A stretch of DNA of 62,404 nucleotides from Terriglobales bacterium (GCA_035277605.1 DATEKE010000237.1:1-62404); one strand, 5' to 3'; positions 8,977 to 39,060 are shown, counted from the stretch's first letter. Made by a program: numbers and translations. Notes: generated by a model from the letters alone, not told the origin.

Positions 8977-9039
8977 TGCTTTGTGGGTTTTTGCTTGTCC
9001 TAATGAAGTGAGGGACGCTTCGAAGTGGGTGTTTGGAAG

Positions 9040-10583: not shown

Positions 10584-10646
10584 GCGAGGATTATACGGAT
10601 TCGCTTTGAAGGCGCAAACCGGCGCGAGGATTTGCTCGTGTAACCT

Positions 10647-11933
10647 ATGAAGGTGCCCCCTGAGACAGAACCGGCTGTCCCACCGAGAGCCGCATTTCAA
10701 TATCGCGATTTCCGGCTGTTCCAGTTTGGGCGCGCACTTTCGATCGTCGGCACGGAGATGCAGTCGGTCGCGGTCGGCTGGCAGGTTTTCGAGATTACTC
10801 ACCGGCCGATCGACCTCGGATATGTAGGTCTCGTCCAATTCCTTCCCGGCGTTTTGCTCTCAATTCCTGCCGGGCACACGGCGGATCGTTTTGATCGTCG
10901 CGCGGTGTTACTGACCTGTTACATCTCTTACTCGATTTGCTCGGTCTTACTCTTTCTGCAAGCACATGCCAGCGCCAAGTCGGTGCTTCCGATTTTCGCA
11001 ACGCTGCTATTAATCGGCATCACCCGCGCGTTCAGCGGACCTGCCAGTCAATCTTTAGTCCCACAGCTTGTGCCGACCGAGCATTTTGGGAACGCAGTCA
11101 CCTGGGGAGCTACCGTTTTCCAGATTGCAACCGTGCTCGGTCCCGCACTGGGCGGCCTGATATATGGCTGGGCACACGGAGCAGCCAACGTTTACATCAC
11201 CGCTGCATGTTGTTATGCGGCGGGTTTCGTGTTCCTGCTGATGATGCGCGTGCGCACCGGCCGGATGGAGAAGAAAGATATCTCCATCGAGACCCTGCTT
11301 GCCGGCGTGCGCTATGTGTGGCGCGAAAAGATCATTTTGGGATCGATCTCGCTGGATTTGTTTGCTGTACTGCTGGGCGGCGCTGTTGCGCTGCTCCCTG
11401 TTTATGCAGAGGACGTGCTGCATGTTGGCCCAGGCGGCCTCGGCGTCTTGCGCAGCATGCCCGCCGCCGGGGCTGCGCTTATGGCAGTTGTGCTGGCATA
11501 TCGTCCGTTGCAACGCCGGTCCGGAGTAATGATGTTCATCGCCGTCGCTATCTTCGGAGTCTCGACCATCATCTTCGGCATTTCGCGTTCAATGACGATC
11601 TCGCTGATTTCGCTGTTCGTCGTAGGCGCCTCAGACATGATCAGCGTTGTCATCCGCAACACGCTCGTCCAGATCGCAACGCCTGCGGCGATGCGTGGCC
11701 GCGTGAGCGCCGTGAACCTGCTGTTCATTGGGGCATCAAACGAATTTGGTCAGTTCGAATCGGGAATTACTGCCCAGTGGCTTGGCGCCATGCCTGCAGT
11801 CATCCTCGGCGGAGTAGGCACGTTAGTGGTCGTTGGACTCTGGGCATGGATATTTCCGCAACTGCGGCAGATGGATCGGCTCATCCCAGTTCGGGAAATT
11901 GAGGCAGAGGCCAAGCAACAGGAGTTGGTGTGA
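10647..11933 (+). CDS. MFS transporter (EntS/MFS_3-like by memory)
   Basis: 428 aa with about 12 predicted TM helices. N-terminal FRLFQFGRALSIVGTEMQSVAVGW is typical of this MFS subgroup. Confidence 0.85.
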   Translation: MKVPPETEPAVPPRAAFQYRDFRLFQFGRALSIVGTEMQSVAVGWQVFEITHRPIDLGYVGLVQFLPGVLLSIPAGHTADRFDRRAVLLTCYISYSICSVLLFLQAHASAKSVLPIFATLLLIGITRAFSGPASQSLVPQLVPTEHFGNAVTWGATVFQIATVLGPALGGLIYGWAHGAANVYITAACCYAAGFVFLLMMRVRTGRMEKKDISIETLLAGVRYVWREKIILGSISLDLFAVLLGGAVALLPVYAEDVLHVGPGGLGVLRSMPAAGAALMAVVLAYRPLQRRSGVMMFIAVAIFGVSTIIFGISRSMTISLISLFVVGASDMISVVIRNTLVQIATPAAMRGRVSAVNLLFIGASNEFGQFESGITAQWLGAMPAVILGGVGTLVVVGLWAWIFPQLRQMDRLIPVREIEAEAKQQELV

Positions 11934-20012: not shown

Positions 20013-20930
20013 TTATTCCAGCTTCGAGGTGTAGTATCCCCGACGTGCACGGACGACAAGCTGACCATTAAGGTCCACTTCATGGGGACGCGCCACCACA
20101 TCTATCTGGCGAAAGTCTGATGCGGCGCGACGCTCTACCGGGTAGTACGCGAGCAGGTATTGCGTACGCAATTCATCGCTAATCTGCTCGAAAGCTTTGT
20201 CCAACTCGAAGATGTTCGAAGCATAGTAATACTTTCCACCCGTATCGTGCGATATCTGGATGAGCGCGTGCTCGCCACCGGTGTTTCGGCCGGCACTAGC
20301 TTCGACGGGAACGTCAATCAAGCTGTAGACGAGGGCTTCCGATTGCTGCGCCGCGCGCAGGGCTTCCTTGTAATCGACGGTACTCGCGGTGTCGCCGCCA
20401 TCGGTGATCAACACCAGAACCTTCCTACCTTCCCGCTTCATCAAGGTCTTAGAGGCGAGATAAATGGCATCGTACAGCGAGGTAGCTCCGCCAACTTGGA
20501 CCTGATTGATCGCTGAATCGATTTGGTGGAGCTTCGACGTGAACGACACCATTTCATTTACATCAGTCGCAAACGCGTATAGCGAAATTGCATCCTGCGG
20601 TCTGATAATCGAGTGAATGAATTTTCGTGCCGCTTCTAACTCCAGGCGAATGTCCTTGCGCGTGCTCGAGCTCGTGTCAACGGCTAAAACAATGGAAAGC
20701 GGTAACTGCGATTCCTTGCTGAAGACGGATATCTTTTGCGGCACCCCGTCCTCGGTCAAGCTGAAGTCGCTTTTCGTGAGGTCTCCAATCGGCGCGCCCT
20801 GCTGGTCGGTGACAGTGACATAGACGTTCACCAGCTTCACATCGACTTTAAAGGTTGGCTCAGAACTGTCCTGCGCGAAGATCGGTAGAAGTAAAGAGGC
20901 AATCGCGAACGCAGAGGCAACAGCTCTCAT
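20013..20930 (-). CDS. Secreted VWA-domain protein of the Acidobacteria-abundant 'VWFA-related' type
   Basis: Signal peptide. MIDAS VDTSSS...T...ITDGGD. N-terminal beta domain FKVDVKLVNVYVTV. The family name is from memory (TIGR03436-like). Confidence 0.82.
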   Translation of the reverse strand: MRAVASAFAIASLLLPIFAQDSSEPTFKVDVKLVNVYVTVTDQQGAPIGDLTKSDFSLTEDGVPQKISVFSKESQLPLSIVLAVDTSSSTRKDIRLELEAARKFIHSIIRPQDAISLYAFATDVNEMVSFTSKLHQIDSAINQVQVGGATSLYDAIYLASKTLMKREGRKVLVLITDGGDTASTVDYKEALRAAQQSEALVYSLIDVPVEASAGRNTGGEHALIQISHDTGGKYYYASNIFELDKAFEQISDELRTQYLLAYYPVERRAASDFRQIDVVARPHEVDLNGQLVVRARRGYYTSKLE

Positions 20931-21661
20931 TACAAACGCTCCTTCGGAGCATCTGGAGCAACGCGCAGTTCTTCTGGAAAAGGCTCTCCATCGGCCCAGA
21001 CCACCCCGTCGGTGAAGTGCTCTCTTTTCCAGATGGGAACCGTACGTTTCAGCGTATCGATGGCAAAGCGACAGGCGTCGAATGCCGCCGCCCGATGGGC
21101 AGAGGCAACCACGATCAGAACGCTGGTTTCGCCAATCTCGAGCCGACCCACGCGATGGACGATCACAATCTTGCGAATTTTGTAGTTCGCAAGCACTTTC
21201 TCAGCCAGCGCATTCAACTGGCTGAGAGCCATAGGTTCATAGGCTTCATAGTCGAGGAAAAGCGTCTGCCGGTTACGTGTATGGTTCCGAACAATGCCTT
21301 CGAAAACCACCGCCGCCCCGTCTTGTCCAAGCTTAATTCCTTCGAGAATCTGCTCCGTGGGGATACGCTCCCGGACAATGTCGCACTTGTAGCTTTCGGG
21401 CCTCGCTGCCGTTTCCACACCACCACTGACTGGCGGTAGTAGTGCTACCTCATCACCGTCTTTTAAGCGCTGAGCCGGAGCTGCGTACTCTTGATTCACC
21501 GCCAAGGCAAGGGAATGGAAGATGCCGGCACTTTCGGGAGCAAGTCCACGATAGTGTTCCAACAAGTCGGAAACCGTGGCTCCAGACACCAATTCCAGCG
21601 AGTCGTTACTGCGTTTGAGGATGTCTTTAAGCACTCCGAACAAAAGGACACGCACGCGCAT
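20930..21661 (-). CDS. moaDE: Fused molybdopterin synthase MoaD-MoaE (MoaX-like)
   Basis: N-terminal MoaD (MRVRVLLFGVLK...ALLPPVSGG) joined to MoaE (VVFEGIVRNHT...SAHRAAAFDACRFAIDTLKRTVPIWKRE). Start moved to ATG 21661 because the upstream 36 codons have poor third-position GC. Confidence 0.85.
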   Translation of the reverse strand: MRVRVLLFGVLKDILKRSNDSLELVSGATVSDLLEHYRGLAPESAGIFHSLALAVNQEYAAPAQRLKDGDEVALLPPVSGGVETAARPESYKCDIVRERIPTEQILEGIKLGQDGAAVVFEGIVRNHTRNRQTLFLDYEAYEPMALSQLNALAEKVLANYKIRKIVIVHRVGRLEIGETSVLIVVASAHRAAAFDACRFAIDTLKRTVPIWKREHFTDGVVWADGEPFPEELRVAPDAPKERL

Positions 21662-21938
21662 GGCTTGTTTAAGGATACGTGAGAGTAGTCGAAAAAGACT
21701 TAACGGCGCCTGGACTAGGTTGAACTCACTCGAGGGGTCGGCAGGAGCGCGATTTTCGCCGGATTTCACTGGGAGAAATCTGCCATTCCTTCTCTGGGAA
21801 GCGCCGTTGCCAGGCTAACGCCTTGATAAACGAAAGTAATGTCGTATTTCCTTTCTAGTACTGCCCAATTTGCGATACATTATTTCGGCCCCCGGACAGC
21901 AGTCCCCACTTTCATGACCACGCAGGAGTTCCCTTACC

Positions 21939-24806
21939 ATGGGCGTTAAGCCCAAGCCTGCGCGTGTGACCAACACGCCCGAAAATCGTCTTCCCGCGCG
22001 CGGGAAAGCGCCGAAATCCGTCGGCTTGCGCGAGACGCAACAGGCGCTGCGTGACACGGAAAACCGCTTCCGGGCATTCGTCGAGCAATCGTCGGACATG
22101 TTGTCGCTGCTCGATGAGCGCGGCACCGTCATTCACCAGAGCAAGTCGATCATCCAGCACCTCGGATATCAACCCGAAGAGACCATTGGTGTTTCTTGCT
22201 TTGATTTCGTTCATCCCGAGGACTTGGAGACGGCCATCGCCGGCTTCCGCCAAGGTCTCGAAGACCCATCTGAAGGGGAAGCAATCACCGTAAGGCTGCG
22301 ACATAAGTCCGGTTGCTGGAAGTCGTTTGAGGCCGTCAGCAGCCCTTATGTTTACCAAGGACGCAAAGCCGGACTGCTGGCCAGCTTTCGTTGTGTAAGC
22401 GACCGATTTGAAGCCGAATTGGAACTGCGACGTTCAGAGGAACGATACCGACGGCTGTTCGAGCGCAACCTTGCAGGCGTATTTAGCAGCCGATCGGGTC
22501 GCCTGCTCGACTGCAACGATTCTTTTGCTCACATCTTCGGGTATGAATCGCGCGAGCAGATGATCGCTGCCGGTGACTTCAATCCTTATTACAACCCACA
22601 ACAGCGCGCTGACTACATAGAGAAATTGAAGAAAGAACGCGCCCTTGCCAACGTTGAATTCCGTTTCCGTAAGCGCGATGGCTCGGAAGTATGGGTACTC
22701 GAAAACGTGATGCTCGAGGATGAAGGCGACGAATCCATCCTCGGCACACTGATTGACATTACCGAGCGCAAGCGTTCAGAACGCCTGCAGAGCGCGTTGT
22801 ATTCCATTAGTGATTGCGTCAATTCTGTGGTCGACCTGGAACAGCTTTATCCGGCGTTACACAAAATTGTCGGCGAGTTGATGTACGCAAATAATCTTTA
22901 CATCGCATTGCTCGATAAAAGTGGCGAGCGGCTGCATTTTCCCTACTTCGTCGATGAAGGCGATCCCCCGCCGGTGAGCCGGAGATTAGGAAACGGCCTT
23001 ACCGAGTACGTGCTCCGGAGCGGGAAACCTCTGCTCGCCGACTTCGCGAAAATCCGTCACCTTGAAACTCAGTGTGAAATCGAAGCCATCGGGCGTGATT
23101 GCGTCGACTGGCTAGGAGTTCCTCTGCGGCATGGCAACAAAGTATTCGGCGTAATTGCCCTGCAGAGCTACGATCCGAAGATCCGGCACAGCGACCACGA
23201 CCGCGACATCCTCACTTACGCCTCGCAACACATCTCGGTTGCACTCGTGCGGAAGCAGCAGGAAGAGGCACTGCGCGCCTCCGAGGCTCGGCATCGTTCG
23301 CTCGTCGAGAGCGCAGTCTATGGAATGTATCGCTCCAGCATAGATGGCAAGTTCCTCGACGTGAATCCCGCGCTTGTGAAAATGCTGGGCTATTCCTCTG
23401 CGGAGGAGCTGATGAGTGTCGACATGGCTCGCGACATCTATCTAGATTCCGATCAGAGAGCAGCGGTGATTCACGCCTACCGCGAGTCTGGTTGCCTGGA
23501 AAGCTGCGAGCTGCGCTGGAAACGTAAAGATGGGAGGTCCATCACAGTCCGGCTAAGCGGAAACGTCTTCAAGAATGAACACGGCGAGCCGCTCGGCTTC
23601 GAGATGATCGCAGAAGACGTGAGCGAGCGTCGCGCGCTGGAGGAGCAGCTTCGCCAGTCGCAGAAGATGGAGGCAATTGGACGACTCGCCGGCGGCATTG
23701 CGCACGACTTCAATAACCTGCTTACCGTTATGAAAGGCTACAGCGAGCTGATGCTCGACGAGCTCGACACGGCCGATCCTTTGCGCACCGAAGTGGACGA
23801 AATCAAGAAAGCCGCCGATCGCGCGGCTGCGCTAACCCGGCAACTTCTCGCCTTCAGCCGCCAACAGGTGCTCGCGCCAAAGGTTCTCGATTTGAACTCC
23901 GTAGTCGGGAACATGGATAAGCTCCTTCGCCGTCTGCTCGGCGAGGATATTGACCTGTTTACGGTGCTCGAGCCAGGGCTGGCCCGGGTAAAAGCTGATC
24001 CCGGACAAGTCGAGCAGGTCATCATGAACCTGGCTGTCAATGCGCGTGATGCCATGCCGAATGGCGGCAAGCTCACCATTGAGACCGCGAATGTCGATTT
24101 GGACGAAAACTACATACGCGATCACGCTTCCGTGAAGCCGGGTACCTACGTAATGGTTGCCGTGACCGACACCGGAACGGGAATGACCGACAAAGTGCAG
24201 TCGCGTATCTTTGAGCCGTTCTTCACGACAAAAGAGATCGGCAAGGGCACGGGCCTTGGACTGTCAACTGTGTACGGCATCATCAAGCAGAGCGGCGGCT
24301 ACATCTGGGTTTATTCCGAACTGGGAATCGGTTCGACATTCAAAGTCTACTTGCCCGCACTAGACGCCCCAGCGGAACTTCCTGCTTGCACCACCCTACC
24401 GCCAGCCCGCCGAGGCAGCGAAACCGTTCTGCTGGTTGAAGACGAGGATGGCGTCCGCGCTCTCATGCGGCAGGTTCTGCATAAGCATGGATACAACGTT
24501 CTTGAATCCCGTCATGGCGGCGAAGCATTGCTGATGTGCGAGCGCCATTCCGGGAAAATCGATCTGCTACTTACCGATGTCGTGCTGGAGCAGATGAGCG
24601 GACGCGAACTGGCCGAGCGCTTGATCAAGGTACGTCCGGAGATGAAGGTCTTATACGTCTCCGGCTACGCCGATGACGCCATAGTCCACCATGGGGTCCT
24701 GAATGCCGGGGTCGCGTTCCTGCAAAAGCCATTCACAACCGAGGCGTTGGCTCGGAAGATCAGATACGTTCTGGATGGCGTAGCCCGCGCGGCCTCCCAA
24801 AGCTGA
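21939..24806 (+). CDS. Hybrid sensor histidine kinase (PAS-PAS-GAF-PAS-HisKA-HATPase_c-REC)
   Basis: 955 aa, no TM segment seen. H-box IAHDFNNLLTVM, N-box NLAVNARDAMPNGG, G-box GTGLGLSTVYG. C-terminal receiver VLLVEDEDGVR...LLLTDVVL. Confidence 0.92.
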   Translation: MGVKPKPARVTNTPENRLPARGKAPKSVGLRETQQALRDTENRFRAFVEQSSDMLSLLDERGTVIHQSKSIIQHLGYQPEETIGVSCFDFVHPEDLETAIAGFRQGLEDPSEGEAITVRLRHKSGCWKSFEAVSSPYVYQGRKAGLLASFRCVSDRFEAELELRRSEERYRRLFERNLAGVFSSRSGRLLDCNDSFAHIFGYESREQMIAAGDFNPYYNPQQRADYIEKLKKERALANVEFRFRKRDGSEVWVLENVMLEDEGDESILGTLIDITERKRSERLQSALYSISDCVNSVVDLEQLYPALHKIVGELMYANNLYIALLDKSGERLHFPYFVDEGDPPPVSRRLGNGLTEYVLRSGKPLLADFAKIRHLETQCEIEAIGRDCVDWLGVPLRHGNKVFGVIALQSYDPKIRHSDHDRDILTYASQHISVALVRKQQEEALRASEARHRSLVESAVYGMYRSSIDGKFLDVNPALVKMLGYSSAEELMSVDMARDIYLDSDQRAAVIHAYRESGCLESCELRWKRKDGRSITVRLSGNVFKNEHGEPLGFEMIAEDVSERRALEEQLRQSQKMEAIGRLAGGIAHDFNNLLTVMKGYSELMLDELDTADPLRTEVDEIKKAADRAAALTRQLLAFSRQQVLAPKVLDLNSVVGNMDKLLRRLLGEDIDLFTVLEPGLARVKADPGQVEQVIMNLAVNARDAMPNGGKLTIETANVDLDENYIRDHASVKPGTYVMVAVTDTGTGMTDKVQSRIFEPFFTTKEIGKGTGLGLSTVYGIIKQSGGYIWVYSELGIGSTFKVYLPALDAPAELPACTTLPPARRGSETVLLVEDEDGVRALMRQVLHKHGYNVLESRHGGEALLMCERHSGKIDLLLTDVVLEQMSGRELAERLIKVRPEMKVLYVSGYADDAIVHHGVLNAGVAFLQKPFTTEALARKIRYVLDGVARAASQS

Positions 24807-25042
24807 CTGTTCGCTTTTGCCTTCTTTCATTTCAGATTCGAACACCTGACCTACTTTGTTTCATCTGTAAATTCTTGTAACCTCTTCAATCATTGAGAGA
24901 TATTGCCGGACGTTCCGATGCGACTCGACTCCGAACGATGGAATTGGGCTTGCTCATTGCAGAGAGAGGACCGCTCGCAATATCGAACTTCCGGTTCCTT
25001 CGGATACGTCCATTGTCTTCCCTGCTCAAATCGGAGATTGCA

Positions 25043-26221
25043 GTGACCGATAGCTCTTATCCCTCATCTTTTGGCGCCGGAGTTGGCGTCGCGGCGCGGC
25101 CCAAGCGCGTGCTCGTGGCCGACGATCAGGCCGACGTCTTGCACGCCATTGCTCTTCTCTTAAAACTCGAGGGATTTGAGTCGCAAACGGTCAGTCATCC
25201 TGCGGCCGTGATGGAAGCACTCAACTCCGGCGAGTTCGATTTGCTCATCACCGATTTGAACTACACACTGGATACCACTTCAGGAACCGAGGGTCTCGAT
25301 CTGATATCGAGCATTCGCAAGATCAACGCGAACGTTCCCGTTTTGGTCATTACCGCCTGGGGCACGATCGAACTGGCCGTGGAAGCATTGCAGCGCGGAG
25401 CGTCGGATTTCATCCAGAAGCCCTGGACCAATTCTCAGCTCATTCAAAAATCGCGCGATCTCATTGAGCGTGCCGAGCAGGCTCGCCGCCTGAGCGCCGA
25501 AGCCGAGGAAGAACAACAAGTTTCGGCTGAAATTCAGCGCAAGCTTCTCTCGCTGCGTTTACCGGAGCAGCACGGCATCACCGTGAGCGGCGACTCGCGT
25601 TCAATGCGCTACGTTGGCGGAGATTATTGCCATCTTACGCCGCTTACGTCTTCGAAGTTCTCTGTGTCTATTGCCGATGTCGCAGGTAAGGGAGTTCCGG
25701 GCGCCCTGCTCACAGCCAGCTTGCGCGGACTCGAGAAAAGCATTGTCACACACGATGTTCATCCGCAGCAGCTCTGCAGCTCGCTAAACGAAGCGCTGAG
25801 CGAGATCATGCCAATTGGCAAGTTTGTATCGTTCTTCTTCGGAATCATCGACACGGAAACGCGCACTCTCTGCTACAGCAACGCTGGACACAATCCTCCA
25901 ATTCTCGTGCACGCAGATGGAACCGCTCAGGAGCTTCGCGTTGGAGGAGGCGTTCTCGGCCTGTTTTCCGAATGGACGTACGAGCAGACGCAGCTAAAGC
26001 TTGAAAGAGGCGATCGATTGATCCTTTATACCGACGGCATCACGGAAGTGGAGAGCCGTCACGACGAAGAATTCGGCATGCAACGCGTGAAAGACATCGT
26101 CGTGAGAAATCGCACGGCTTCCGCCGAAGAGATTCAGCGTGCCGTAATGAAGGCCGTAAGCGCTCATTGTGAAGAACGCTTCCACGACGACGCAACGGTC
26201 GTTGTGATTGCGGTACAGTAG
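25043..26221 (+). CDS. Response regulator with a PP2C/SpoIIE phosphatase output (RsbU-like)
   Basis: REC (RVLVADDQADVL...LLITDLNY) followed by a SpoIIE-type domain (GGDYCHL..., ADVAGKGVPGAL, YSNAGHNPP, LYTDGITE). Start moved to GTG 25043 with GGAG 7 nt upstream. Confidence 0.88.
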   Translation: MTDSSYPSSFGAGVGVAARPKRVLVADDQADVLHAIALLLKLEGFESQTVSHPAAVMEALNSGEFDLLITDLNYTLDTTSGTEGLDLISSIRKINANVPVLVITAWGTIELAVEALQRGASDFIQKPWTNSQLIQKSRDLIERAEQARRLSAEAEEEQQVSAEIQRKLLSLRLPEQHGITVSGDSRSMRYVGGDYCHLTPLTSSKFSVSIADVAGKGVPGALLTASLRGLEKSIVTHDVHPQQLCSSLNEALSEIMPIGKFVSFFFGIIDTETRTLCYSNAGHNPPILVHADGTAQELRVGGGVLGLFSEWTYEQTQLKLERGDRLILYTDGITEVESRHDEEFGMQRVKDIVVRNRTASAEEIQRAVMKAVSAHCEERFHDDATVVVIAVQ

Positions 26222-26227
26222 TGCAAA

Positions 26228-27106
26228 TCAGCGTTGATTCCGGTCGTTCTCGGAGGAGCGTGCGGTAGGAGTGCCAATTCCGGCCGCGCTCATTTCTCCA
26301 GGCTCCTTTGCTTGAAGCATTCGCCTCATCGCAAATTCAACAATCGCAGGGAACATTTCATAAAGATGAGCAACGACGCCTGCGTGCCAGGGCACGAATA
26401 CCTCACGTAAACCGTGTAGGTAGCCGCGCAGGATTGCGCGAGCGCAGCGCTCGGCTGAAATCCCTTTTTGGAAGCTCTCGCCTAAGCGCTTGCCTTCAAG
26501 TCCTCTGACAGTATTCGTACCGAAGTGGGTCTGAATACGTCCCGGACAGACGCTTATCACGCGAATACCATCTGGTTCGAGTTCCAGACGAGCCGCTTCG
26601 CTAATCGCATTCAGGGCGTGCTTGGTGGCAGAGTAGGCGCCTAAGTGAGGAACAGGCAAATGTCCCACAAGACTTGAGATGTTGATGATCGCGCCTCTTC
26701 CCCGCTCCTTCATGACTGGAATCACCGCCTGCATGCACTCGATCGCGCCAAAGAGGTTCGTGTCGAAGATCCGTCTGCATTCATCCATGGACATCGATGC
26801 AACCGAATCCAGCAGACCGTAACCCGCATTATTCACCCAAGCATCGATCTTCCCGAATTGGTCGCGTGTTTGAGAAACAAGTGAAAGAATCTGATTGCGA
26901 TCGCGAACGTCGCATGCAATTGTTCTGGTTCTGTCCAGGAATCCCACCTTGATCCGCGCTTGTTCGACTGCCGACGAATTCCGTGAACTCATTACAACGT
27001 GAGCACCTTCGCCGGCGAAAGCACGTGCTAAGGCCTCGCCAATTCCCATGGAGGCGCCGGTAATGACTACGACCTGATCGCGGCAATGCATGGTTGCATT
27101 ATTCAC
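26228..27106 (-). CDS. Short-chain dehydrogenase/reductase (SDR)
   Basis: TGASMGIG cofactor motif and YSATKHA catalytic motif. Start is either GTG 27106 or ATG 27091. Confidence 0.88.
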   Translation of the reverse strand: MNNATMHCRDQVVVITGASMGIGEALARAFAGEGAHVVMSSRNSSAVEQARIKVGFLDRTRTIACDVRDRNQILSLVSQTRDQFGKIDAWVNNAGYGLLDSVASMSMDECRRIFDTNLFGAIECMQAVIPVMKERGRGAIINISSLVGHLPVPHLGAYSATKHALNAISEAARLELEPDGIRVISVCPGRIQTHFGTNTVRGLEGKRLGESFQKGISAERCARAILRGYLHGLREVFVPWHAGVVAHLYEMFPAIVEFAMRRMLQAKEPGEMSAAGIGTPTARSSENDRNQR

Positions 27107-27184
27107 AAGGGCTACATACTAAAAGATCGCTCTTGCCGTACGGTGATGAATCTCGCGCGAACGGCGCTCGTTTAGAATCGGGTA

Positions 27185-27796
27185 GTGAGTGAACTTCTAC
27201 CTCTCTTCCCGCTCGACGTGGTGCTCTTTCCCGGCATGGCTCTGCCGCTGCATATATTCGAACCGCGCTATAAAGAGCTGATCGGCGAATGTCTGGAGCA
27301 TGATGCGCCTTTCGGTGTGGTACGGGCTGTGGAGGATGGGCTTGCCCAGATCGGCTGCTCAGCTGAAGTGGTGACAGTCGTAAAGAAATACGATGATGGA
27401 AGAATGGACATCGTTACCCGGGGCTTGCAACGCTTCGAGATCGTCGAATTGAATCAGGACCGCTCATTTCTCCAGGCCGACGTAACTTTTCTGACACAAG
27501 GCCCTGATGCCGATTCAAGCGAAAAGAAAAAAGCATTCGATCTTCACCACACCCTGCTACTGATGGCAGCCAGCGGACAGACGATCCCCACACTGGATCC
27601 TCCCGACGAATTTCTCTCCTTCTACCTGATCTCACAACTTCCTGTCGATCTCGACTTCAAACAAACGATTCTGGCGATGCCCACGGAGACAAAGCGCCTA
27701 TCTACACTGATCGAATATTACGAGACGATCATTCCCAAATTGCAAAAGATGATGCAGGCGAAAAAGAAGAGCGGATCGAACGGACATGTGATGTAG
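27185..27796 (+). CDS. Stand-alone LON substrate-binding (Lon N-terminal) domain protein
   Basis: LLPLFPLDVVLFPGMALPLHIFEPRYKELI is the characteristic Lon-N start. 203 aa with no ATPase or protease domain. Confidence 0.85.
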   Translation: MSELLPLFPLDVVLFPGMALPLHIFEPRYKELIGECLEHDAPFGVVRAVEDGLAQIGCSAEVVTVVKKYDDGRMDIVTRGLQRFEIVELNQDRSFLQADVTFLTQGPDADSSEKKKAFDLHHTLLLMAASGQTIPTLDPPDEFLSFYLISQLPVDLDFKQTILAMPTETKRLSTLIEYYETIIPKLQKMMQAKKKSGSNGHVM

Positions 27797-27900
27797 AGGC
27801 AGTAAGCAATGGGATCGTTCGCGTTCGTCCAGCGGTTTCAGCCCAGTGTCTAGCCTATTGCTGATCGGCACTTTTTCCCCGCGTATAATTTTCATTTGAG

Positions 27901-29400
27901 GTGATCCCATCGGTAATGACCCTCCCCACCAGTCTTGGCGAACTTCGGAAAAGTGAATTCAATGAGCAGCGGTTGAAGACTCGCCGCGTAAAGGATGAGC
28001 TGCGCGACAACCTTATCCGGAAGATAAAGACCGGAGAGACGATTTTTCCCGGTATCGTTGGATACGACGACACCGTCGTACCGCAGTTAATCAATGCCGT
28101 ACTGTCGCGGCATAACTTCATCCTTCTTGGGCTGCGCGGGCAAGCCAAGAGCCGCATGCTGCGCGCGCTGACCGGCCTACTCGATCCACAGTTGCCTTAC
28201 GTAATGGGTTGCGAGATTCACGATGATCCCTACGATCCTTTGTGCCGGCGCTGCAACAACCTGATCGCCGAAAAAGGCGAGGCCACGCCGATCGCATATC
28301 TCACGCCGCCGCAGCGATACGTCGAAAAACTCGCGACTCCAGACGTGACCGTGGCCGATCTCATCGGGGACATCGATCCGATCAAAGCCGCGCGCGGAGG
28401 GCTGGATCTGGCGAGCGAACTCACGGTCCACTATGGACTGCTGCCACGAGCAAATCGCGGCATCTTCGCCGTCAACGAACTTCCGGACCTGGCGGGGAAA
28501 ATTCAGGTTGCGCTCTTCAACATCATGCAAGAGGGCGACGTACAGATTAAGGGCTATCCAGTCCGATTGAACCTGGACGTGGCGCTGGTGTTTAGCGCGA
28601 ATCCTGAAGACTACACCGCTCGCGGAAAGATCGTCACGCCACTGAAAGATCGCATTGGCTCGGAGATTCGCACGCACTACGCCGGAACGGTCGATGAGGG
28701 CGTTGCCATCACCCAGCAGGAAGCCTGGACCGAACGCCACGGCCATCCGCTGTATGTCCCGCAGTACATTCGCGAAATTGTGGAACAGATCGCCTTCGCC
28801 GCGAGGGAAGATAAGCGCGTCGATAAGCGCTCTGGCGTGAGCCAGCGCCTTCCGATTTCAACGATGGAGAACGTAATCTCCAACGCGGAGCGCCGCGCTT
28901 TTCGAAACGGCGAGGGCACCGTTGTTCCCCGCGTAAGTGATATCTATGGCGCGATGCCTGCGATCACAGGCAAGCTGGAACTGGAGTACGAAGGCGAACT
29001 GCGTGGAGCCGACACAGTTGTCCGCGATCTCATCCGTCTCGCGGTCGCTCGCACCTTCGACACCTACTTCAAGGACGGCAACATGCAGCAGATCATTCAA
29101 TGGTTCGATCTGGGAGGCCAGCTCAAGTTCAGTGACACCGCTCCTTCGGCCGAGCTGATGGATGGTCTCAAGCACATTCAAGGTCTCTCGGAAAAGCTAA
29201 GCGCAGTCGGTGTGAAGCCGAAGGACAAAGCCGAGATCGTCGTCTCCGGCGCAGAGTTCCTGCTCGAAGGACTCTACGCACACAAGCGCATAGGCCGCAG
29301 CGAGGAGCGCGTATTCATGGCGCCCGATAAGCAGCGCCACGCGGAGAAGGCTCCGAGTCGGGAAGAGGTCCCCGTTCGGAACAGGCGACCGTATAACTAG
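27901..29400 (+). CDS. ChlI/Mg-chelatase-like AAA+ ATPase of unknown function
   Basis: P-loop-like GLRGQAKS, Walker B-like IFAVNELPD, FNIMQEGDVQIKG segment as in ChlI/MoxR proteins. Start is GTG 27901 or ATG 27916 (GAGGTGAT upstream). Confidence 0.85.
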   Translation: MIPSVMTLPTSLGELRKSEFNEQRLKTRRVKDELRDNLIRKIKTGETIFPGIVGYDDTVVPQLINAVLSRHNFILLGLRGQAKSRMLRALTGLLDPQLPYVMGCEIHDDPYDPLCRRCNNLIAEKGEATPIAYLTPPQRYVEKLATPDVTVADLIGDIDPIKAARGGLDLASELTVHYGLLPRANRGIFAVNELPDLAGKIQVALFNIMQEGDVQIKGYPVRLNLDVALVFSANPEDYTARGKIVTPLKDRIGSEIRTHYAGTVDEGVAITQQEAWTERHGHPLYVPQYIREIVEQIAFAAREDKRVDKRSGVSQRLPISTMENVISNAERRAFRNGEGTVVPRVSDIYGAMPAITGKLELEYEGELRGADTVVRDLIRLAVARTFDTYFKDGNMQQIIQWFDLGGQLKFSDTAPSAELMDGLKHIQGLSEKLSAVGVKPKDKAEIVVSGAEFLLEGLYAHKRIGRSEERVFMAPDKQRHAEKAPSREEVPVRNRRPYN

Positions 29401-29411
29401 GCTCGCATTAA

Positions 29412-30656
29412 ATGAAGTTTATTAAATACACAAAGTACGTTCCCGATCCTGCCTCCGAGATGAGCATGGATGACCTGCTCAGCGCTCTCTCCGATTATCT
29501 GCTGCAGAGTGGCTTTCAGGATTCCTGGTACTCCTACGAATTCAATGATGGCGAGCAGACACTCGATGAGCTGCGGCAGGCGATTCAGCAGGCGCTCGAA
29601 GCCGGCGAGTTGCTTGATGAGAACATGCGCGAGCGCCTGGAGCAAATGCGTGCCGAAGGTCAGTTCGATGAGCTCATCGAGAAGCTGATCGAACGCATGG
29701 AGCAGGAAGACTACATCAGCATCGATCAGCCCTTTGACCAAGCACGGCAATCGAGCGTTCCGGGCCAAACCGACGAACAGCAGCAGGCGCAGGTAAAGTT
29801 CGAAGTCACCGACAAAGGACTCGACTTCCTCGGCTACCGCACCCTGCGCGATCTTCTAGGCTCACTAGGGAAATCCAGTTTCGGACGGCACGACACTCGT
29901 GACATGGCGACCGGCGTCGAGTCGAGCGGTGCGTCGCGAGCTTACGAGTTCGGCGACACCTTGAACCTCGACATTACTGCCACCTTGTCGAACGCCATTC
30001 AGCGCGACGGCCTCAAAGTGCCCGTCGAACTCGAGTACTCAGATCTTCAGGTGTATCAGTGCGAGTATCAGTCGTCATGTGCAACTGTGCTCATGCTCGA
30101 CTGCTCGCATTCGATGATCCTCTACGGAGAAGATCGCTTCACGCCAGCGAAGAAAGTGGCGATGGCCCTGTCGCAGCTCATCCGCACGCAATATCCCGGC
30201 GATTCACTTTCCCTCGTGCTCTTTCACGATTCGGCCGAGGAGCTGCCGTTATCGCAACTGGCGCGCGTAAAGGTTGGGCCGTATTACACGAATACACGCG
30301 AAGGTCTGCGAATGGCGCAGCGCATCCTCGAGCGCCAGCGCAAGGACATGAAGCAGATCATCATGATCACTGACGGCAAGCCTTCGGCGCTCACGCTTGA
30401 AGATGGACGCATTTACAAAAATGCTTTCGGACTGGATCCTCTCGTCGTCAGCCAGACGCTTGAAGAGGTTTCGCGCTGCAAGCGGGCAGGCGTGATGATC
30501 AACACCTTCATGCTTGCCTCGGATTTCGGGCTGATTCAGTTCGTTCAGAAGGTGACGGAAATGTGCCGCGGAAAAGCGTATTTCACTACTCCGCATACGC
30601 TCGGTCAGTACCTGCTCATGGATTACATGTCGCGCAAGACGCGCACGATTCACTAA
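29412..30656 (+). CDS. VWA-domain protein with an acidic helical N-terminal region (CoxE/ChlD-C-terminal-like)
   Basis: MIDAS DCSHS ... NT ... ITDGKPS. N-terminal ~110 aa rich in Asp/Glu/Gln. Starts 11 nt after the ATPase stop. Confidence 0.85.
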
Positions 30657-30665
30657 GACAAAAGG

Positions 30666-30704
30666 CGATAGGCATTACTCGTGGGCCTACCGCTTTGCCT
30701 ATCG
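30666..30704. terminator. Possible stem-loop between convergent genes (9-bp stem CGATAGGCA/TGCCTATCG, 21-nt loop)
   Basis: Seen by eye. The loop is large and there is no clear U-tract. Confidence 0.25.
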
Positions 30705-30715
30705 TCTACTGCTTC

Positions 30716-31147
30716 TTAGATCTTCGTTTTTCCGCTCGCCGAGATCAGCAGCTCGCGCAAACGGGTGGCCTGACTTTGCTCCTCATCCGTCTCGACGAGA
30801 AATTCGATCCCATAAGAGTAGCCGCGGCGATTACGCACTTCGGCTTTCACCCGCATGGGCTGGCCGGAGTATGCAGGCGTGAACTCCACTTCGACAATGT
30901 CGCCGATGCGCAGTTCGACTCCAGCGAACACGGCCATGCCGCCTTCGCTCATGTCGCGTCCGCGGGCTTCGACGATCTTGGCGGTATGCAGCGAGTTCCA
31001 GAAGATCAGGCGAATGGGCACGTCGATGCCGCTGCGTTCCCAACGGCGCTTGCGTGCGAAACCTGTGGAGGATTGGGCGGAGGTTGCCGTCGCCATGCTG
31101 CTGATAATATCGGCGCTCCTCCGTTCGCCGAAGATTACGAAAGACAT
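30716..31147 (-). CDS. PilZ domain protein (143 aa)
   Basis: RRWER (RxxxR) and DMSEGG (D/NxSxxG) motifs. Confidence 0.78.
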   Translation of the reverse strand: MSFVIFGERRSADIISSMATATSAQSSTGFARKRRWERSGIDVPIRLIFWNSLHTAKIVEARGRDMSEGGMAVFAGVELRIGDIVEVEFTPAYSGQPMRVKAEVRNRRGYSYGIEFLVETDEEQSQATRLRELLISASGKTKI

Positions 31148-31397
31148 ATTGACGCTATAACCTGCACTGAACTCGTTGCCAGCTCCTCAACTAATACAAA
31201 ACAGACAGGTTCGCAGTCACGCGTTGCGAGCGCCGTGTGCAAACTGTAGGCAATGTCCCGCCGAGAAGCCATGCTGAATTGGAACTAGCGCACGTCGGCA
31301 ATGTACGTGCTCACGCTGATGAACTTACGCGAGACGTTTCTCGTAACTCTGGGGTAACCTTGGACGGCCTCCAGTCTGCAAGTACCGGCACCTGCAA

Positions 31398-32924
31398 ATG
31401 GCAACTCCGAACGTAGCTCGAAAGATCACTTTTTCAGATTCATATACACCGCGCGCCACTGCTGTTGTGGCTTTCATTGCTTTGGCGATCGCCGCTGTTC
31501 ATTTGCTCACGAACCAGCGCTACGGCTTTCATCGCGACGAACTTCAGACGCTCTCCGATGCTCTTCACCTGGATTGGGGATTCGTTCCCTATCCTCCCTT
31601 AACGCCCTTCCTCGAGCGGATTGGGCTTCACTTCTTCGGACTCTCCCTGGTTGGATTGCGCATTTTTTCCGTGATAGCGCAGAGCACTGCGATCTTCGTC
31701 ACCGGTTTAATGGCATGGGAACTCGGCGGGGGACACTTAGCTCAAGCAACGGCGGCGCTGGCAGTTGCGGTTGCTCCACTGGCGTTGTTCGAGGGAACGG
31801 AATTTCAGTACACCTCCTTCGACTATTTATGGTGGGTACTGGTCGCTTATTTCGTCATCCGTCTGCTCAAGACGGAGAATCCGCGCTGGTGTCTGGCGAT
31901 CGGCGCGGTCGTTGGAATTGGTTTGCAGACGAAATACACCATGTTCTTCTATCTCGTCGGCGTGTTGCTCGGATTGCTCCTGACACCTGCACGCCGCTTT
32001 CTGCTGACTCGCTGGTTCTGGGCTGGAGCCGGCATTGCCCTGCTCATCTTTCTTCCTAATTTCATTTGGCAGATACGCCACGATTTCATCTCATTGCAGT
32101 TCCTGCGCCACATTCACACACGCGATGTTGGTGAGGGCCGTGCCGAAGGTTATTGGAGTTCTCAGTTCCTCAATGCAAATCCGCTCTCGGTGCCTCTTTG
32201 GATCGCCGGCCTCATCGGTTTTTTCCGCAATGCTCGTTTCAGAGTGCTGGCATGGATGGCGGTGGTTCCCGTTTTGATACTCTGGATTTCTAAAGGGCGG
32301 GGCTACTATCCAGGAGCCATCTATCCGATGCTGTTAGCCATGGGCGCGGTATTAATGGAGGCGTGGATTCATCGCTCCAACCGGCGCTGGTTAAAACCCG
32401 CTGTCATGGTGTATTTGATCACTCTCATCGGCGGAGGAGCATACGCGAGCACCATCCTGGTCCCCTCGACATCAATCGGTCCACTGCATGATCGGGCGCT
32501 GAAGAACAACGGAGACTTGCGGGAGGAGATCGGCTGGAACGAACTGGTAAAGAATGTCGCGAGTATCCGCGATTCGCTGCCTCCGGACCAACGCGCAAAC
32601 GTCGGCATTCTGGCCGGCAATTATGGTGAGCAGGGTGCGATCGAACTCCTTGGACGTGCGTACAAGTTGCCGGCACCCATCTCGATGACGAACTCGGCGT
32701 GGTTGCGCGGATACCCAACACCACCGCCATCCACACTGATCGTGGTGGGAAACTCAGCCGAGTGGGTGAATAAGAACTTCACCTCGTGCCGTCTCGCTGG
32801 TCATAACACCAATTCGGAAGGAGTCGACAACGAAGAGAGCCATGACCATCCAGACATTTTCGTCTGTGGCCCTCCTCGCCTGCCTTGGGCAGAGTTCTGG
32901 CAAACGCATCAACGATTCGGATAA
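31398..32924 (+). CDS. Glycosyltransferase family 39 (ArnT/PMT-like) integral membrane protein
   Basis: 508 aa with about 10 or more TM helices. N-terminal HRDEL...PYPPLTPF loop typical of GT-C/PMT_2 enzymes, plus a soluble C-terminal domain. Confidence 0.8.
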   Translation: MATPNVARKITFSDSYTPRATAVVAFIALAIAAVHLLTNQRYGFHRDELQTLSDALHLDWGFVPYPPLTPFLERIGLHFFGLSLVGLRIFSVIAQSTAIFVTGLMAWELGGGHLAQATAALAVAVAPLALFEGTEFQYTSFDYLWWVLVAYFVIRLLKTENPRWCLAIGAVVGIGLQTKYTMFFYLVGVLLGLLLTPARRFLLTRWFWAGAGIALLIFLPNFIWQIRHDFISLQFLRHIHTRDVGEGRAEGYWSSQFLNANPLSVPLWIAGLIGFFRNARFRVLAWMAVVPVLILWISKGRGYYPGAIYPMLLAMGAVLMEAWIHRSNRRWLKPAVMVYLITLIGGGAYASTILVPSTSIGPLHDRALKNNGDLREEIGWNELVKNVASIRDSLPPDQRANVGILAGNYGEQGAIELLGRAYKLPAPISMTNSAWLRGYPTPPPSTLIVVGNSAEWVNKNFTSCRLAGHNTNSEGVDNEESHDHPDIFVCGPPRLPWAEFWQTHQRFG

Positions 32925-37182: not shown

Positions 37183-39060
37183 ATGGCCACATCTGCCGAA
37201 GCAGCACATCTTCCCGATCTCAAGAACGAACGTCGCAGCGCCTGGCGAAAGGCTGTGCCGGCGCGCAGCCGTATTGAGCTCTCTCCGGGCCACGGCGCCT
37301 CGGCTCGCGACATCAGCGAAGGCGGCGTAAGCCTGTTTGGAAGGGCAGATCTGGATGTCGGCAGCGAGACCCAACTGCGCTTTATCCTGCCCGGTTCCGA
37401 CACGCAGATCGAAGCCTCAGGCGTAGTCGCCTGGAGTGACGAGCTGGCAACCGGCATCCGTTTCATACACATCAACATCGACTCGCTCACCGCACTTCAG
37501 AGCTGGCTCGAGAGCTCGCCTGAGCACGAGGACGACTCCGCGAACCTGCGCGCCGACGCGGTACTGGCAGCCAAAGTCGCCTGCCTGCGTGAGATCGCCG
37601 ATCTTCAGGCGCAGATCTCCTCCAACGATCTCGATTCCGATGCCGCTCTCGCGCTGATCGTGCGCCGTCTCGCCGAACTCACACGCGCGACTGGGTCTGC
37701 CATCGCCTTGCGCGATGGGCAACAAGTAGTCTGCCGTGCGTCATACGGCAATGCGCCCGATGTGGGCGTGCAGCTCTCGCAATCATCGCTCTCCGGCGAG
37801 TGCTTGCGCACTGCCAACGTCGTCTTGTTGCGCGATTCAGAAACCGATCCGCGAGTAGATGCCGCTATCTGTCGTCAGCTGAATTTCCGTTCGCTGCTCA
37901 TTGTTCCGGTGCTCTCCAATGGAAAGCCGGCCGGAATCGCCGAAGTGCTCTCTGCCAATCCGGGAAATTTCGAAGGCACCGACATTCTCGTAGTCAGCTT
38001 CATCGCCGACCTTATCGCCGGCGTCGCGGTGCCTGCAGAGCAGAGCGAAGCTGCGCCTGTTGAGCGCCGTACCAGCTTCGATCCATTGGTTGAGCCCGAT
38101 CTGCCGACTCCGCAAATCGCGATGGAGGTCCCGATTCCCGCGGCTCCCGTCGCAACTCCGGTCCCAGTAGTGAGAGAAGTTCAGCCCGCGATTGCGCATG
38201 CGCGAGAGGTCTCGATTCCTGCGCCGATGTCGATGCCGGTTCGATCCATACCGGCATCTTCGACCGCATCCGCTCCGCAACCCGCGCGCCCTACGGTGCC
38301 GGCCCATGCGCCCGAATTTCACGAGGAAACACATCCGATCACCCCTGCTACGGATCAGCAGCGGCGGGTATATTTCGCCATAGCTCTGGTCGCGATTCTG
38401 CTGATTGTGATTGCGACATTCACGATCATGCGCCTCCGCAAGCCTGCGCAAAGCCCGCGGCTTGCGCCCAGCACAACTGCCACGACAACTTTAGGCCCTG
38501 CGACATCAGCAATCACGCAACCCACGTCAACTGTGGTGGTGGAAGCTCCTAAGAGCGAGCCGAAGAAACCCAGCCCTGCTCCAACCCACTCAGCCAAGAT
38601 CTCCTCAGATTCCCATAATGAACCAGCAACACAGGAGGTCGCCGTTCGCGAGACCACGCAGACACCCTCCCCCAGCGATGCTCCACCCCCCGCGCCTTCT
38701 CTCGGCCAACTCTCAGCCGCATCGTCTGCGAATCTGGCCGCCGCGATCGTCGCCACCAACACCCCAACGCCTGGGCTGACACTGCCCCAATCGCGCGGCG
38801 TAATTGAAGGAAAACTGATCCGGAAGGTACTGCCACAGTATCCCGAAATGGCACGACGTGCCGGCGTAGGCGGCGATATTGTCCTGAGCGCCACGATCGG
38901 CACCGACGGAAAGCTGAAGAACATTCGCGTCGTCAGTGGCAGCCCATTGCTACGGGAAGCAGCCGTCTCGGCAGCTAAGCAATGGCGCTATTCCCCATAT
39001 CTGCTGGGTGGAAAGCCCGTCGAAACCGATACCCATATCACCATCAGTTTCAAGCATTAA
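37183..39060 (+). CDS. PilZ-GAF-TM-(Pro-rich spacer)-TonB_C multidomain protein
   Basis: PilZ motifs RRSAWR and DISEGG. GAF-like segment (ATGSAIALRDGQQVVCRASYG...LIVPVLSNGKPAGIAEVLS). TM helix VYFAIALVAILLIVIATFTIM. C-terminal TonB_C (LPQYPEMARRAGVGGDIVLSATIGTDGKLKNIRVVSG...AKQWRYSPY). Confidence 0.85.
   Translation: MATSAEAAHLPDLKNERRSAWRKAVPARSRIELSPGHGASARDISEGGVSLFGRADLDVGSETQLRFILPGSDTQIEASGVVAWSDELATGIRFIHINIDSLTALQSWLESSPEHEDDSANLRADAVLAAKVACLREIADLQAQISSNDLDSDAALALIVRRLAELTRATGSAIALRDGQQVVCRASYGNAPDVGVQLSQSSLSGECLRTANVVLLRDSETDPRVDAAICRQLNFRSLLIVPVLSNGKPAGIAEVLSANPGNFEGTDILVVSFIADLIAGVAVPAEQSEAAPVERRTSFDPLVEPDLPTPQIAMEVPIPAAPVATPVPVVREVQPAIAHAREVSIPAPMSMPVRSIPASSTASAPQPARPTVPAHAPEFHEETHPITPATDQQRRVYFAIALVAILLIVIATFTIMRLRKPAQSPRLAPSTTATTTLGPATSAITQPTSTVVVEAPKSEPKKPSPAPTHSAKISSDSHNEPATQEVAVRETTQTPSPSDAPPPAPSLGQLSAASSANLAAAIVATNTPTPGLTLPQSRGVIEGKLIRKVLPQYPEMARRAGVGGDIVLSATIGTDGKLKNIRVVSGSPLLREAAVSAAKQWRYSPYLLGGKPVETDTHITISFKH

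Follow-up and report, generated by a model that had tools for sequence, protein, structure and literature searches.

Pairs formed by an AAA+ ATPase and a protein carrying a von Willebrand factor A (VWA) domain follow a motor-adaptor-effector principle, in which the VWA adaptor, by its adhesion site dependent on a metal ion (MIDAS), holds a client and the AAA+ ring supplies the force (PMC7159879). In a preprint on CobSTN, the ChlI/D, NorQ/D, CoxD/E, CbbQ/O and RavA/ViaA pairs are likened to each other as motor-adaptor-effector assemblies (bioRxiv 10.64898/2026.07.21.739949). A pair of this sort, made of a ChlI-like ATPase and a VWA protein encoded by adjacent genes, is described here in a stretch of 62,404 nt from a Terriglobales bacterium (GCA_035277605.1 DATEKE010000237.1:1-62404). 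This stretch is called the window, and positions are counted along its whole length.

On balance, the two proteins probably form a motor-adaptor machine that remodels a protein client encoded by an unlinked gene. Judged by the parallel of the ChlI/ChlD, CobS/CobT, CbbQ/CbbO and NorQ/NorD pairs, the ATPase would assemble as a ring to which the VWA protein would bind, and the metal site of the MIDAS would grip a carboxylate on the client. Movements of the ring driven by ATP would pass through the VWA adaptor, and the client would be remodelled, or opened for the insertion of a cofactor. The pair belongs to a large and strongly conserved family, in which gene order and the key residues of both proteins are maintained across phyla.

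A large family of paired genes

Homologues sharing sequence words with the ATPase are more than 8000 (74-99% identity), and an exhaustive comparison of the ATPase with representatives clustered at 50% identity returned 3789 clusters at E<1e-3, of which 732 reach E<1e-30. When one genome per species was scanned, at least 599 stretches matched, and the 80 best of these belong to several Acidobacteriota orders, to Gemmatimonadota and to Trueperaceae. The family is found in Acidobacteriota, Gemmatimonadota, Deinococcota, Actinomycetota and Thermomicrobiota; cultured carriers are Micromonospora, Tsukamurella, Nocardia and Nonomuraea among Actinomycetota, and also Thermomicrobium. The window ATPase is 44% identical to the Micromonospora protein P0156, 42.5% identical over 94% of its length to the Tsukamurella protein, and 39.5% identical over 100% of its length to the Nocardia protein. 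Identity is about 75% across Terriglobales, and long stretches are invariant across phyla. A Terriglobales metagenome-assembled genome (MAG; L003) is 96% identical to the window at the protein level and syntenic for the genes encoding a phosphatase, a short-chain dehydrogenase/reductase (SDR), Lon-N, the ATPase, the VWA protein, PilZ and a PMT_2 glycosyltransferase. The window locus is an ordinary member of the family, not a unique one. The word 'orphan', by which a preliminary description had labelled the pair, is accordingly misleading. The same description had mentioned similar pairs of a magnesium chelatase-like and a VWA protein in other phyla, lacking an assigned function, and such pairs do occur in Actinomycetota, Thermomicrobium and other groups.

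Four loci carry labels at odds with their content. The contigs of L001, L002, L045 and L047, or their proteins, are labelled Actinomycetota, Verrucomicrobiae, Alphaproteobacteria and Bifidobacterium breve. All have a synteny of acidobacterial type and are 61-76% identical to the window protein, and the MAG bins are therefore probably contaminated.

The pair can be assigned to the Rv0958/Rv0959-type family, named after proteins of Mycobacterium tuberculosis. The window ATPase is homologous to the actinobacterial members over its full length, and a partner combining PF27098 with a VWA domain is encoded directly downstream. Orthology to Rv0958 and Rv0959 is inferred from the names of the Pfam families and from the synteny observed in Tsukamurella (order Mycobacteriales), in which purN and purH are followed by four genes, the ATPase gene and the VWA gene, Rv0956 and Rv0957 being presumably purN and purH in M. 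tuberculosis. In databases the ATPase goes under the names 'magnesium chelatase (subunit I)' and 'sigma 54-interacting transcriptional regulator', and the partner under 'VWA domain-containing protein' and 'Ca-activated chloride channel homolog'.

In the literature searched, no work on the function of the Rv0958/Rv0959-type family was found, and a single experimental mention was encountered. The M. smegmatis protein MSMEG_5512, listed as the Rv0958 orthologue, is in the high-confidence list of an affinity purification-mass spectrometry experiment targeted to RNA polymerase, and FLAG-tagged MSMEG_5512 brought down no DNA (PMC7092591). This listing is the only experimental hint for a view that we consider rather improbable, in which the pair would be a bacterial counterpart of the midasin/Rea1 principle (AAA+ ring, acidic linker and MIDAS), acting as a housekeeping remodeller. 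The pair would take a factor off, or put one onto, some highly conserved machine of the cell, for example RNA polymerase or the ribosome; the ATPase, having an invariant Asn in Walker B, would work slowly, as at a checkpoint. The basic and aromatic tail of the ATPase would be a new docking element, and Lon-N would be the receptor of the client in Acidobacteriota.

The spread and conservation of the family also bear on a role in conflict. MoxR-vWA modules form the core of conflict systems found in multicellular prokaryotes (PMC7159879), and the pair might be an anti-phage system of this type having its effectors elsewhere. We regard this as very unlikely. PADLOC assigned none of the four proteins (0 families), homologues were found in none of 50,697 phage records and in no more than four records of plasmids or chromids, none of them mobilizable, and effector domains are not present. 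The high identity found across Terriglobales is unexpected for defence genes, which diversify fast, and the chromosomal synteny is stable, as exemplified by the vicinity to purN-purH in Tsukamurella. On the basis of the PADLOC, phage and plasmid searches, the defence-system and mobile-element readings were rejected.

The ATPase and its VWA partner

In the window, a Lon-N gene, the ATPase gene and the VWA gene are co-directional, and a PilZ gene converges on the 3' end of the pair. ORF (open reading frame) calling returned the three co-directional genes at the coordinates of the preliminary description, and the PilZ gene where it had been placed there. The features are listed below; residues of the ATPase are numbered according to the 494-aa form.

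27185-27796, + strand: Lon-N protein, 203 aa, a stand-alone PUA-like substrate-binding domain (PF02190, 102.6 bits, cutoff 28.7)
27881-27889, + strand: GCGTATAAT, conserved -10 promoter element of the ATPase-VWA unit, from the sequence and its comparison across loci
27898-27904, + strand: GAGGTGA, Shine-Dalgarno sequence, 11 nt 5' of the ATG at 27916
27916-29400, + strand: ChlI-like AAA+ ATPase of the chelatase subclade, 494 aa; the ORF as called mechanically begins at GTG 27901 (499 aa)
28129-28152, + strand: Walker A, GLRGQAKS, residues 72-79, aligned by HMMER under GDRGTGKS of ChlI
28210-28254, + strand: C99-x2-H102-x7-C110-x2-C113 knuckle in an insertion after Walker A, a possible Zn site identified as a pattern
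28462-28488, + strand: Walker B, IFAVNELPD, including Asn187-Glu188, aligned by HMMER under ILYVDEV of ChlI
29380-29397, + strand: C-terminal tail of the ATPase, NRRPYN, having a basic cluster, a penultimate aromatic residue and a terminal Asn
29412-30656, + strand: VWA/MIDAS protein, candidate adaptor, 414 aa, a short form of the Rv0959 architecture (VWA_2, 38.5 bits, cutoff 27)
29460-29741, + strand: acidic stretch near the N-terminus of the VWA protein (residues 17-110), with a net charge of -19 and predicted helices
29793-30056, + strand: middle domain of the VWA protein, about residues 128-215, FEVTDKxLDFLG…GxH…YEFGD…R, highly conserved
30099-30374, + strand: MIDAS residues D230-C-S232-H-S234 (30099-30113), T293 (30288-30290) and D321 (30372-30374), the ligands being invariant in 29 partners
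30716-31147, - strand: PilZ gene (Pfam), convergent on the 3' end of the pair

The ATPase stop and the VWA start are separated by 11 nt, and 104 nt separate the Lon-N gene from the AAA+ ORF. The start of the ATPase is probably ATG 27916 rather than GTG 27901, as 494 aa is the length of most close homologues and the Shine-Dalgarno sequence is found 11 nt upstream of this ATG. The VWA start at 29412 is supported by the N-terminal nonapeptide MKxxRYSKY, which is conserved across phyla.

In searches with hidden Markov models, the Lon-N and VWA proteins matched LON_substr_bdg and VWA_2 above cutoff, and the models matching the ATPase stayed below threshold. Among Pfam families these were Sigma54_activat (PF00158, 20.0 bits, cutoff 20.2), AAA_5 (19.7, cutoff 22) and Mg_chelatase (PF01078, 16.5, cutoff 20.3), the first match spanning only positions 85-143 of 168. 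Scores for the NCBIfam models BchI-ChlI, BchD-ChlD and TIGR02442 are about 10-fold below the cutoffs. TIGR02030 (BchI-ChlI) gave 43.9 bits with the ATPase (cutoff 466.95), and TIGR02442, a fused 'putative cobaltochelatase', gave 46 and 33 bits with the two proteins of the pair (cutoff 779). Along TIGR02442 the ATPase covers the N-terminal third and the VWA protein the linker-plus-VWA part. Matching the N- and C-terminal halves of this model, the two proteins conform to the split ChlI/ChlD domain logic that had been proposed for them. The nearest solved relatives of the ATPase, by sequence profile, are ChlI (E=4e-16), the ATPase domain of Thermococcus LonB (8e-13) and BchI (1e-12).

The weak matches to TIGR02030, TIGR02442 and PF00158, together with the source annotations, are what could be said for taking the database names at face value, the pair being then either a magnesium or cobalt chelatase of ChlI/ChlD type or a sigma-54-dependent activator. 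The probability of this is negligible. A tetrapyrrole chelatase is ruled out because the family cutoffs are failed, the partner lacks the AAA module of ChlD, the hosts are non-phototrophs, and CobN/ChlH genes are found neither among the 34 window ORFs that were scanned for domains (nearly all non-nested ORFs of at least 250 aa, plus PilZ and Lon-N) nor among the recurrent neighbours of the 83 loci. Tetrapyrrole genes are similarly absent from the 34 ORFs, and the only window ORF longer than 1000 aa encodes an outer-membrane barrel. These results agree with the preliminary description, in which the window was said to contain no ChlH/CobN-type or tetrapyrrole gene, and the linkage of homologues to cobN or chlH, named there as a finding that would speak against an unknown client, was not encountered. 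A sigma-54 activator is ruled out as well, the domain match being partial and sub-threshold, and the GAFTGA motif and helix-turn-helix matches (HTH, HTH_8) being missing; in addition, MSMEG_5512 showed no association with DNA (PMC7092591).

Conservation of the ATPase was evaluated in an alignment of 20 full-length sequences (39-60% identity). The residues expected in an AAA+ protein (K78, E188, N229, R236/R246 and R311) are kept, at positions agreeing with the ChlI alignment. E188 and D191 are invariant; K78, N187 (at least 90%), P190, the ANPEDYT sensor-1 segment including N229, R236, D245-R246, SGVSxR311 and R327 are invariant or nearly so. The SGVSxR311 segment plausibly corresponds to sensor 2. 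In a pairwise alignment, HMMER places the Walker A and Walker B motifs under those of a cyanobacterial ChlI, and both assignments made in the preliminary description are right. The Asn-Glu pair that replaces Asp-Glu in Walker B, also noted there, is a trait of the whole family. Asn was found in 82/82 locus copies, in 125 of 126 representatives at 50% identity (the remaining one has Gln), in all of 120 Micromonospora sequences (119 matches plus the query P0156) and in 120/120 close homologues, that is, in over 99% of about 450 sequences. P0189, a further representative included in the ATPase alignment, has Asp. Since the catalytic Glu, the sensors and the arginine fingers are under strong selection and only the Asp is replaced, the ATPase is probably slow or regulated in hydrolysis, not dead.

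The Ala of the P-loop, previously pointed out in place of Gly, is not distinctive. Ala is found in Acidobacteriota and Gly in 120/120 Micromonospora sequences, and the two residues are present in a ratio of 63 to 12 among the representatives. AKS is used in Walker A by MCM proteins too. As family members vary in this way, the Ala/Gly change is a neutral polymorphism.

A conserved basic and aromatic tail at the C-terminus of the ATPase is a new feature noticed here. In 71 full-length copies, compared to other ORFs as background, the penultimate residue is F, Y or W in 57 (background 5.7%) and hydrophobic in 67, and the last residue is Asn in 54. The window protein ends in NRRPYN; other endings are RRQFN, KKYYN, RRRWN (Trueperaceae), GRYS (Pyrinomonadaceae) and PNLFT (Gemmatimonadales). 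The tail is kept in Acidobacteriota and Trueperaceae and, in variant form, in Gemmatimonadota, and the extension is missing in the actinobacterial and Thermomicrobium members, which have partners of 650-700 aa. The tail recalls HbYX and has the appearance of a docking element, which might contact the N-terminal domain of the VWA protein, Lon-N or another ring; no partner ring for an HbYX-like tail was identified. Tails are charged +1 to +7 and VWA N-terminal domains -9 to -21 consistently across loci, a complementarity that has almost no contrast class and is hence no real test of contact.

Tail and fold bring up a route to protein degradation, in which Lon-N would act as receptor, the ATPase as a LonB-like ring unfoldase, and the …PYN tail would dock a separately encoded peptidase ring, as HbYX does with the proteasome. 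The AAA+ domain of LonB is the second-best match of the ATPase by sequence and the best by fold, Lon-N keeps its linkage in two distinct gene orders, and the penultimate aromatic residue is strongly conserved. Against these points, no peptidase gene recurs near the pair, and the residue preceding Tyr or Phe is often Pro, Gln or Gly, where classical HbYX motifs need a hydrophobic residue. Moreover, the tail extension is lacking in actinobacterial members, Actinobacteria being the bacteria that have 20S proteasomes, and the VWA partner is left with no role. Degradation is in our opinion improbable.

A knuckle of the type C-x2-H-x7-C-x2-C was found in 31/87 locus copies and in 29 of 75 representatives, and in none of the Micromonospora sequences. 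It may be an optional zinc site.

The partner encoded downstream has an intact MIDAS. The DxSxS, Thr and Asp ligands of a functional site are all present, and D230, S232, S234, T293 and D321, enclosed in long invariant stretches, are the same in 29/29 diverse partners from five phylum-level groups. The acidic charge of residues 17-110 is also a general property, ranging from -9 to -21 in all loci examined, and helices are predicted in this region at moderate local confidence, in an AlphaFold2 (AF2) model that is otherwise poor. The strongly acidic, helical N-terminus and the intact MIDAS reported earlier are thus both recovered, the helices from a low-confidence model. In the middle domain L140, L145, G158, H160, E170, G181, D182, T191, A195 and R198 are invariant in the 29 partners. 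The domain scan gave only VWA matches for the window protein (P0390). Precomputed assignments to the same protein are PF27098.1 'Rv0959_3rd' and PF13519, shared with L001, L002 and L083; the PF27098 assignment has no coordinates, and the middle domain, at about residues 128-215, would correspond to Rv0959_3rd. The Micromonospora partner, of 650 aa, combines PF27532 'Mb0984_helical', PF27098 and VWA_2. By sequence profile, no solved structure matches the VWA protein significantly, NorD and BatB-type VWA domains being marginal (E=0.1-0.4).

Promoter and gene neighbourhood

The preliminary description had located a TATAAT box at 27884-27889, within the 104-nt gap, and the box is both present and conserved. 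In the window and in 15/15 related loci of its subclade (L001-L011, L014, L028, L034 and L035), the sequence GCGTATAAT, or a nearly identical context, is located upstream of the ATPase ATG at a distance of 22-42 nt, the surrounding spacers being otherwise unconserved. In a second subclade the box reads CTATAAT and is positioned at -52 to -63. Taking all loci together, TATAAT is present within 150 nt upstream in 23/83 loci, the frequency being 0.73% in background windows of 150 nt. Because it is conserved in otherwise unconserved spacers and enriched over background, the box is, on comparative grounds, a real -10 element. A generic scan for sigma-70 promoters in the interval 26900-31400 detected nothing, and no paired or canonical -35 was found. 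As a conserved -10 promoter stands between Lon-N and the pair, the ATPase-VWA unit can, judging from sequence, be transcribed independently of Lon-N. An RNA element in the 104-nt gap was also considered and rejected: no Rfam family matched, and the fold is not unusually stable (z-score 0.09).

The VWA partner was found in 70/83 loci, and most of the others are contigs ending early. The two genes are nearly always adjacent and co-directional, and the order ATPase-VWA is near-universal, being observed also in Micromonospora, Thermomicrobium and Tsukamurella. The VWA gene is located directly downstream of the ATPase gene except in Gemmatimonadota and in one Terriglobales locus, in which DUF1501 and DUF1800 genes are inserted. 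In Gemmatimonadota (L057, L066, L075 and others) the two genes are split by a cytidylate-kinase (CMK)-like gene and a gene on the opposite strand encoding a major facilitator superfamily (MFS) transporter. In L075, the only Gemmatimonadota locus scanned for domains, the insertion (8608-11421) also holds a SPFH/Band-7 gene.

The association of Lon-N is looser. The Lon-N protein, which matches the Lon-like domain of cereblon and the N domains of Lon among PDB structures, is encoded within 7 kb of the pair in 30/83 loci, belonging to some Acidobacteriota and, in one case, to Gemmatimonadota. In Terriglobia the gene is directly upstream of the ATPase gene, and in the window subclade it is preceded by a divergent SDR gene. 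In six loci of Vicinamibacterales type it is found directly downstream of the VWA gene, at gaps of 0-119 nt (0 nt in L082). The gene is about 3 kb downstream in two more loci, and about 6 kb upstream in one Gemmatimonadales locus. Loci of Bryobacterales, Pyrinomonadaceae, Trueperaceae, Micromonospora, Tsukamurella and Thermomicrobium lack a Lon-N gene within 7 kb. Linkage kept in two different gene orders speaks for a functional tie, and its patchiness across lineages for a role outside the core; both argue for Lon-N as a real but accessory, lineage-specific partner. In Acidobacteriota the stand-alone protein would probably serve as an accessory substrate receptor or regulator. The unit of three genes previously envisaged is therefore conserved in part, in that ATPase and VWA co-occur nearly everywhere, but Lon-N does not follow them. 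Similarly, its suggested role as an adaptor is favoured by the linkage in two orders and disfavoured by the limited number of loci and by the promoter that separates it from the pair.

A small tetratricopeptide repeat (TPR) protein, of about 105-130 aa, is encoded co-directionally just 5' of Lon-N in L030 (5859-6248), in L002 (3890-4264) and in 21 other Terriglobia loci. In L030 the TPR, Lon-N, ATPase and VWA genes are packed within 5859-9775, the gap from TPR to Lon-N being 0 nt. The TPR gene may be a fourth gene of the module; no homologue is found anywhere in the window. In Terriglobales loci lacking Lon-N, a 900-aa channel of the MscS family is encoded between the TPR and ATPase genes (L013, 4065-6761; L015, 4047-6782).

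ORFs of all 83 loci were clustered in search of further recurrent neighbours. Those found are local to lineages. In Terriglobia they encode the small TPR protein, a thioesterase of the 4HBT type, an SDR and ParA, and in Gemmatimonadota the CMK-like protein and the MFS transporter. Directly upstream of the pair, Micromonospora, Thermomicrobium and Tsukamurella have genes that bear no relation to one another. Among representatives having N-terminal extensions, the search for fusions yielded only a MASE10 fusion or chimera; neither Lon-N nor a client-like domain was found fused.

Other genes of the window include a VWA gene unrelated to that of the pair (20013-20930, - strand), which abuts a gene encoding a MoaD(ThiS)-MoaE fusion (20930-21769, - strand). 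The large subunit of a molybdoenzyme of the xanthine-dehydrogenase family is encoded 5 kb beyond the fusion (12643-15297, - strand). These three genes could be a separate context of Mo-enzyme maturation. The interval 21939-26221 (+ strand) contains an ORF of 955 aa, which by sequence is apparently a hybrid histidine kinase rich in PAS domains; a gene for a response-regulator/SpoIIE (PP2C) phosphatase comes after it. At 37183-39060 (+ strand) a 625-aa protein features an unusual combination of PilZ, GAF and TonB C-terminal domains.

The Mo genes call for consideration of a special case of the motor-adaptor scheme, in which the pair would be a maturation factor of metal centres, as CoxD/CoxE or NorQ/NorD, and the client a metalloenzyme encoded elsewhere. 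Several characterised AAA+/VWA pairs do serve metal insertion (PMC7159879; bioRxiv 10.64898/2026.07.21.739949), and the window contains both the molybdoenzyme and the MoaD-MoaE fusion. These genes, however, are 6-12 kb away from the pair, with signalling genes between, have a VWA protein of their own, and do not recur beside the pair in the other 85 loci. The ATPase, furthermore, is not of MoxR/CoxD type, having no AAA_3 match and an AAA_5 match below cutoff. Maturation of a metal centre seems to us unlikely, if less so than degradation. A tie of the pair to the Mo-enzyme and Moa genes upstream was ruled out, on account of their own VWA protein and of the missing recurrence in other loci.

Several observations weigh against a pair that remodels a specific client by means of an ATP-driven ring. 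Clustering of the 83 loci revealed no client or effector gene kept beside the pair in any lineage, and remodelling of a specific client is therefore unproven; in most phyla Lon-N, too, is missing from the neighbourhood. The AF2 model of the ATPase is mediocre (pLDDT 68.5, pTM 0.61): residues 260-470 are confident, the core (residues 136-253) has a pLDDT below 50, and the tail (473-494) is predicted to be disordered. Compared by Foldseek to the PDB, this model matched LonB (best), LonC, HslU, MoxR and MCM at a TM of about 0.3, as a generic AAA+ protein would; the MoxR structure 2r44 is a weak match (TM 0.18-0.25). The AF2 model of the VWA protein is unusable (pLDDT 38.9), the rows of its alignment being near-identical sequences only. 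Finally, as the change of the Walker B Asp to Asn usually cripples hydrolysis in P-loop ATPases, the ATPase could act as a switch that binds ATP and not as a motor.

The family deserves attention for its size and very strong conservation, for its occurrence in M. tuberculosis and in phyla dominant in soil, and for its systematic misannotation. Identification of its client would bring a new functional class into the AAA+/VWA motor-adaptor machines and set thousands of annotations right. Asn-Glu, near-invariant in Walker B, is a natural experiment on the need of an AAA+ motor for the canonical Asp, and the conserved tail and the two-way linkage to Lon-N are concrete handles for pull-downs.

Comparison with known systems

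ChlI/BchI and ChlD/BchD, and the fused proteins described by TIGR02442, are close to the pair in several respects. The ATPase is in the same AAA+ subclade as ChlI, and the segment preceding Walker B can be aligned; the partner, as ChlD, joins an acidic region to a MIDAS-VWA domain. The ATPase differs from ChlI in the Asn-Glu of Walker B and in an extra C-terminal domain of about 200 aa, ending in the basic and aromatic tail. The partner differs from ChlD because the N-terminal AAA-like module is missing and the middle domain is of another kind (Rv0959_3rd). Unlike magnesium chelatases, the pair is accompanied by no ChlH/CobN and is hosted by non-phototrophs.

The Rv0958/Rv0959-type pairs of Micromonospora, Tsukamurella and Nocardia are the same system in a different form. 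Their ATPases belong to the same family (40-45% identity over the full length), the genes are in the same order, and the Walker B Asn and the combination of Rv0959_3rd and VWA with an invariant MIDAS are shared. In contrast, the partners found in Actinobacteria and Thermomicrobium are 650-700 aa long and include the extra helical domain Mb0984_helical (PF27532), against the 414 aa of the window partner, and the actinobacterial ATPases have Gly in the P-loop and lack the tail extension, the Cys knuckle and a Lon-N gene nearby.

Archaeal LonB and LonC are similar in the AAA+ core, which resembles that of LonB both in sequence and in fold, and a Lon-N protein is encoded beside the window ATPase. 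Compared to Lon protease, none of the three genes encodes an S16 peptidase domain, Lon-N is a separate protein of 203 aa whose linkage is lineage-specific, and the scores obtained with NCBIfam models of Lon, 17-22 bits, are below the cutoffs (608-891).

The logic of a two-gene motor and VWA adaptor is common to the MoxR-class pairs CbbQ/CbbO, NorQ/NorD, CoxD/CoxE, RavA/ViaA and CobS/CobT, and by analogy the mechanism is probably common too, the VWA/MIDAS protein engaging the effector and the AAA+ ring supplying the force. The window ATPase differs from MoxR proper in its AAA_3 and AAA_5 scores, and NorD is only marginally similar to the VWA profile. MoxR-class genes adjoin those of their clients (Rubisco, NOR, CODH, CobN), whereas this pair has no conserved client gene at its side. 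The pair is a distinct, uncharacterised variant of the AAA+/VWA motor-adaptor kind, and not a new kind of system.

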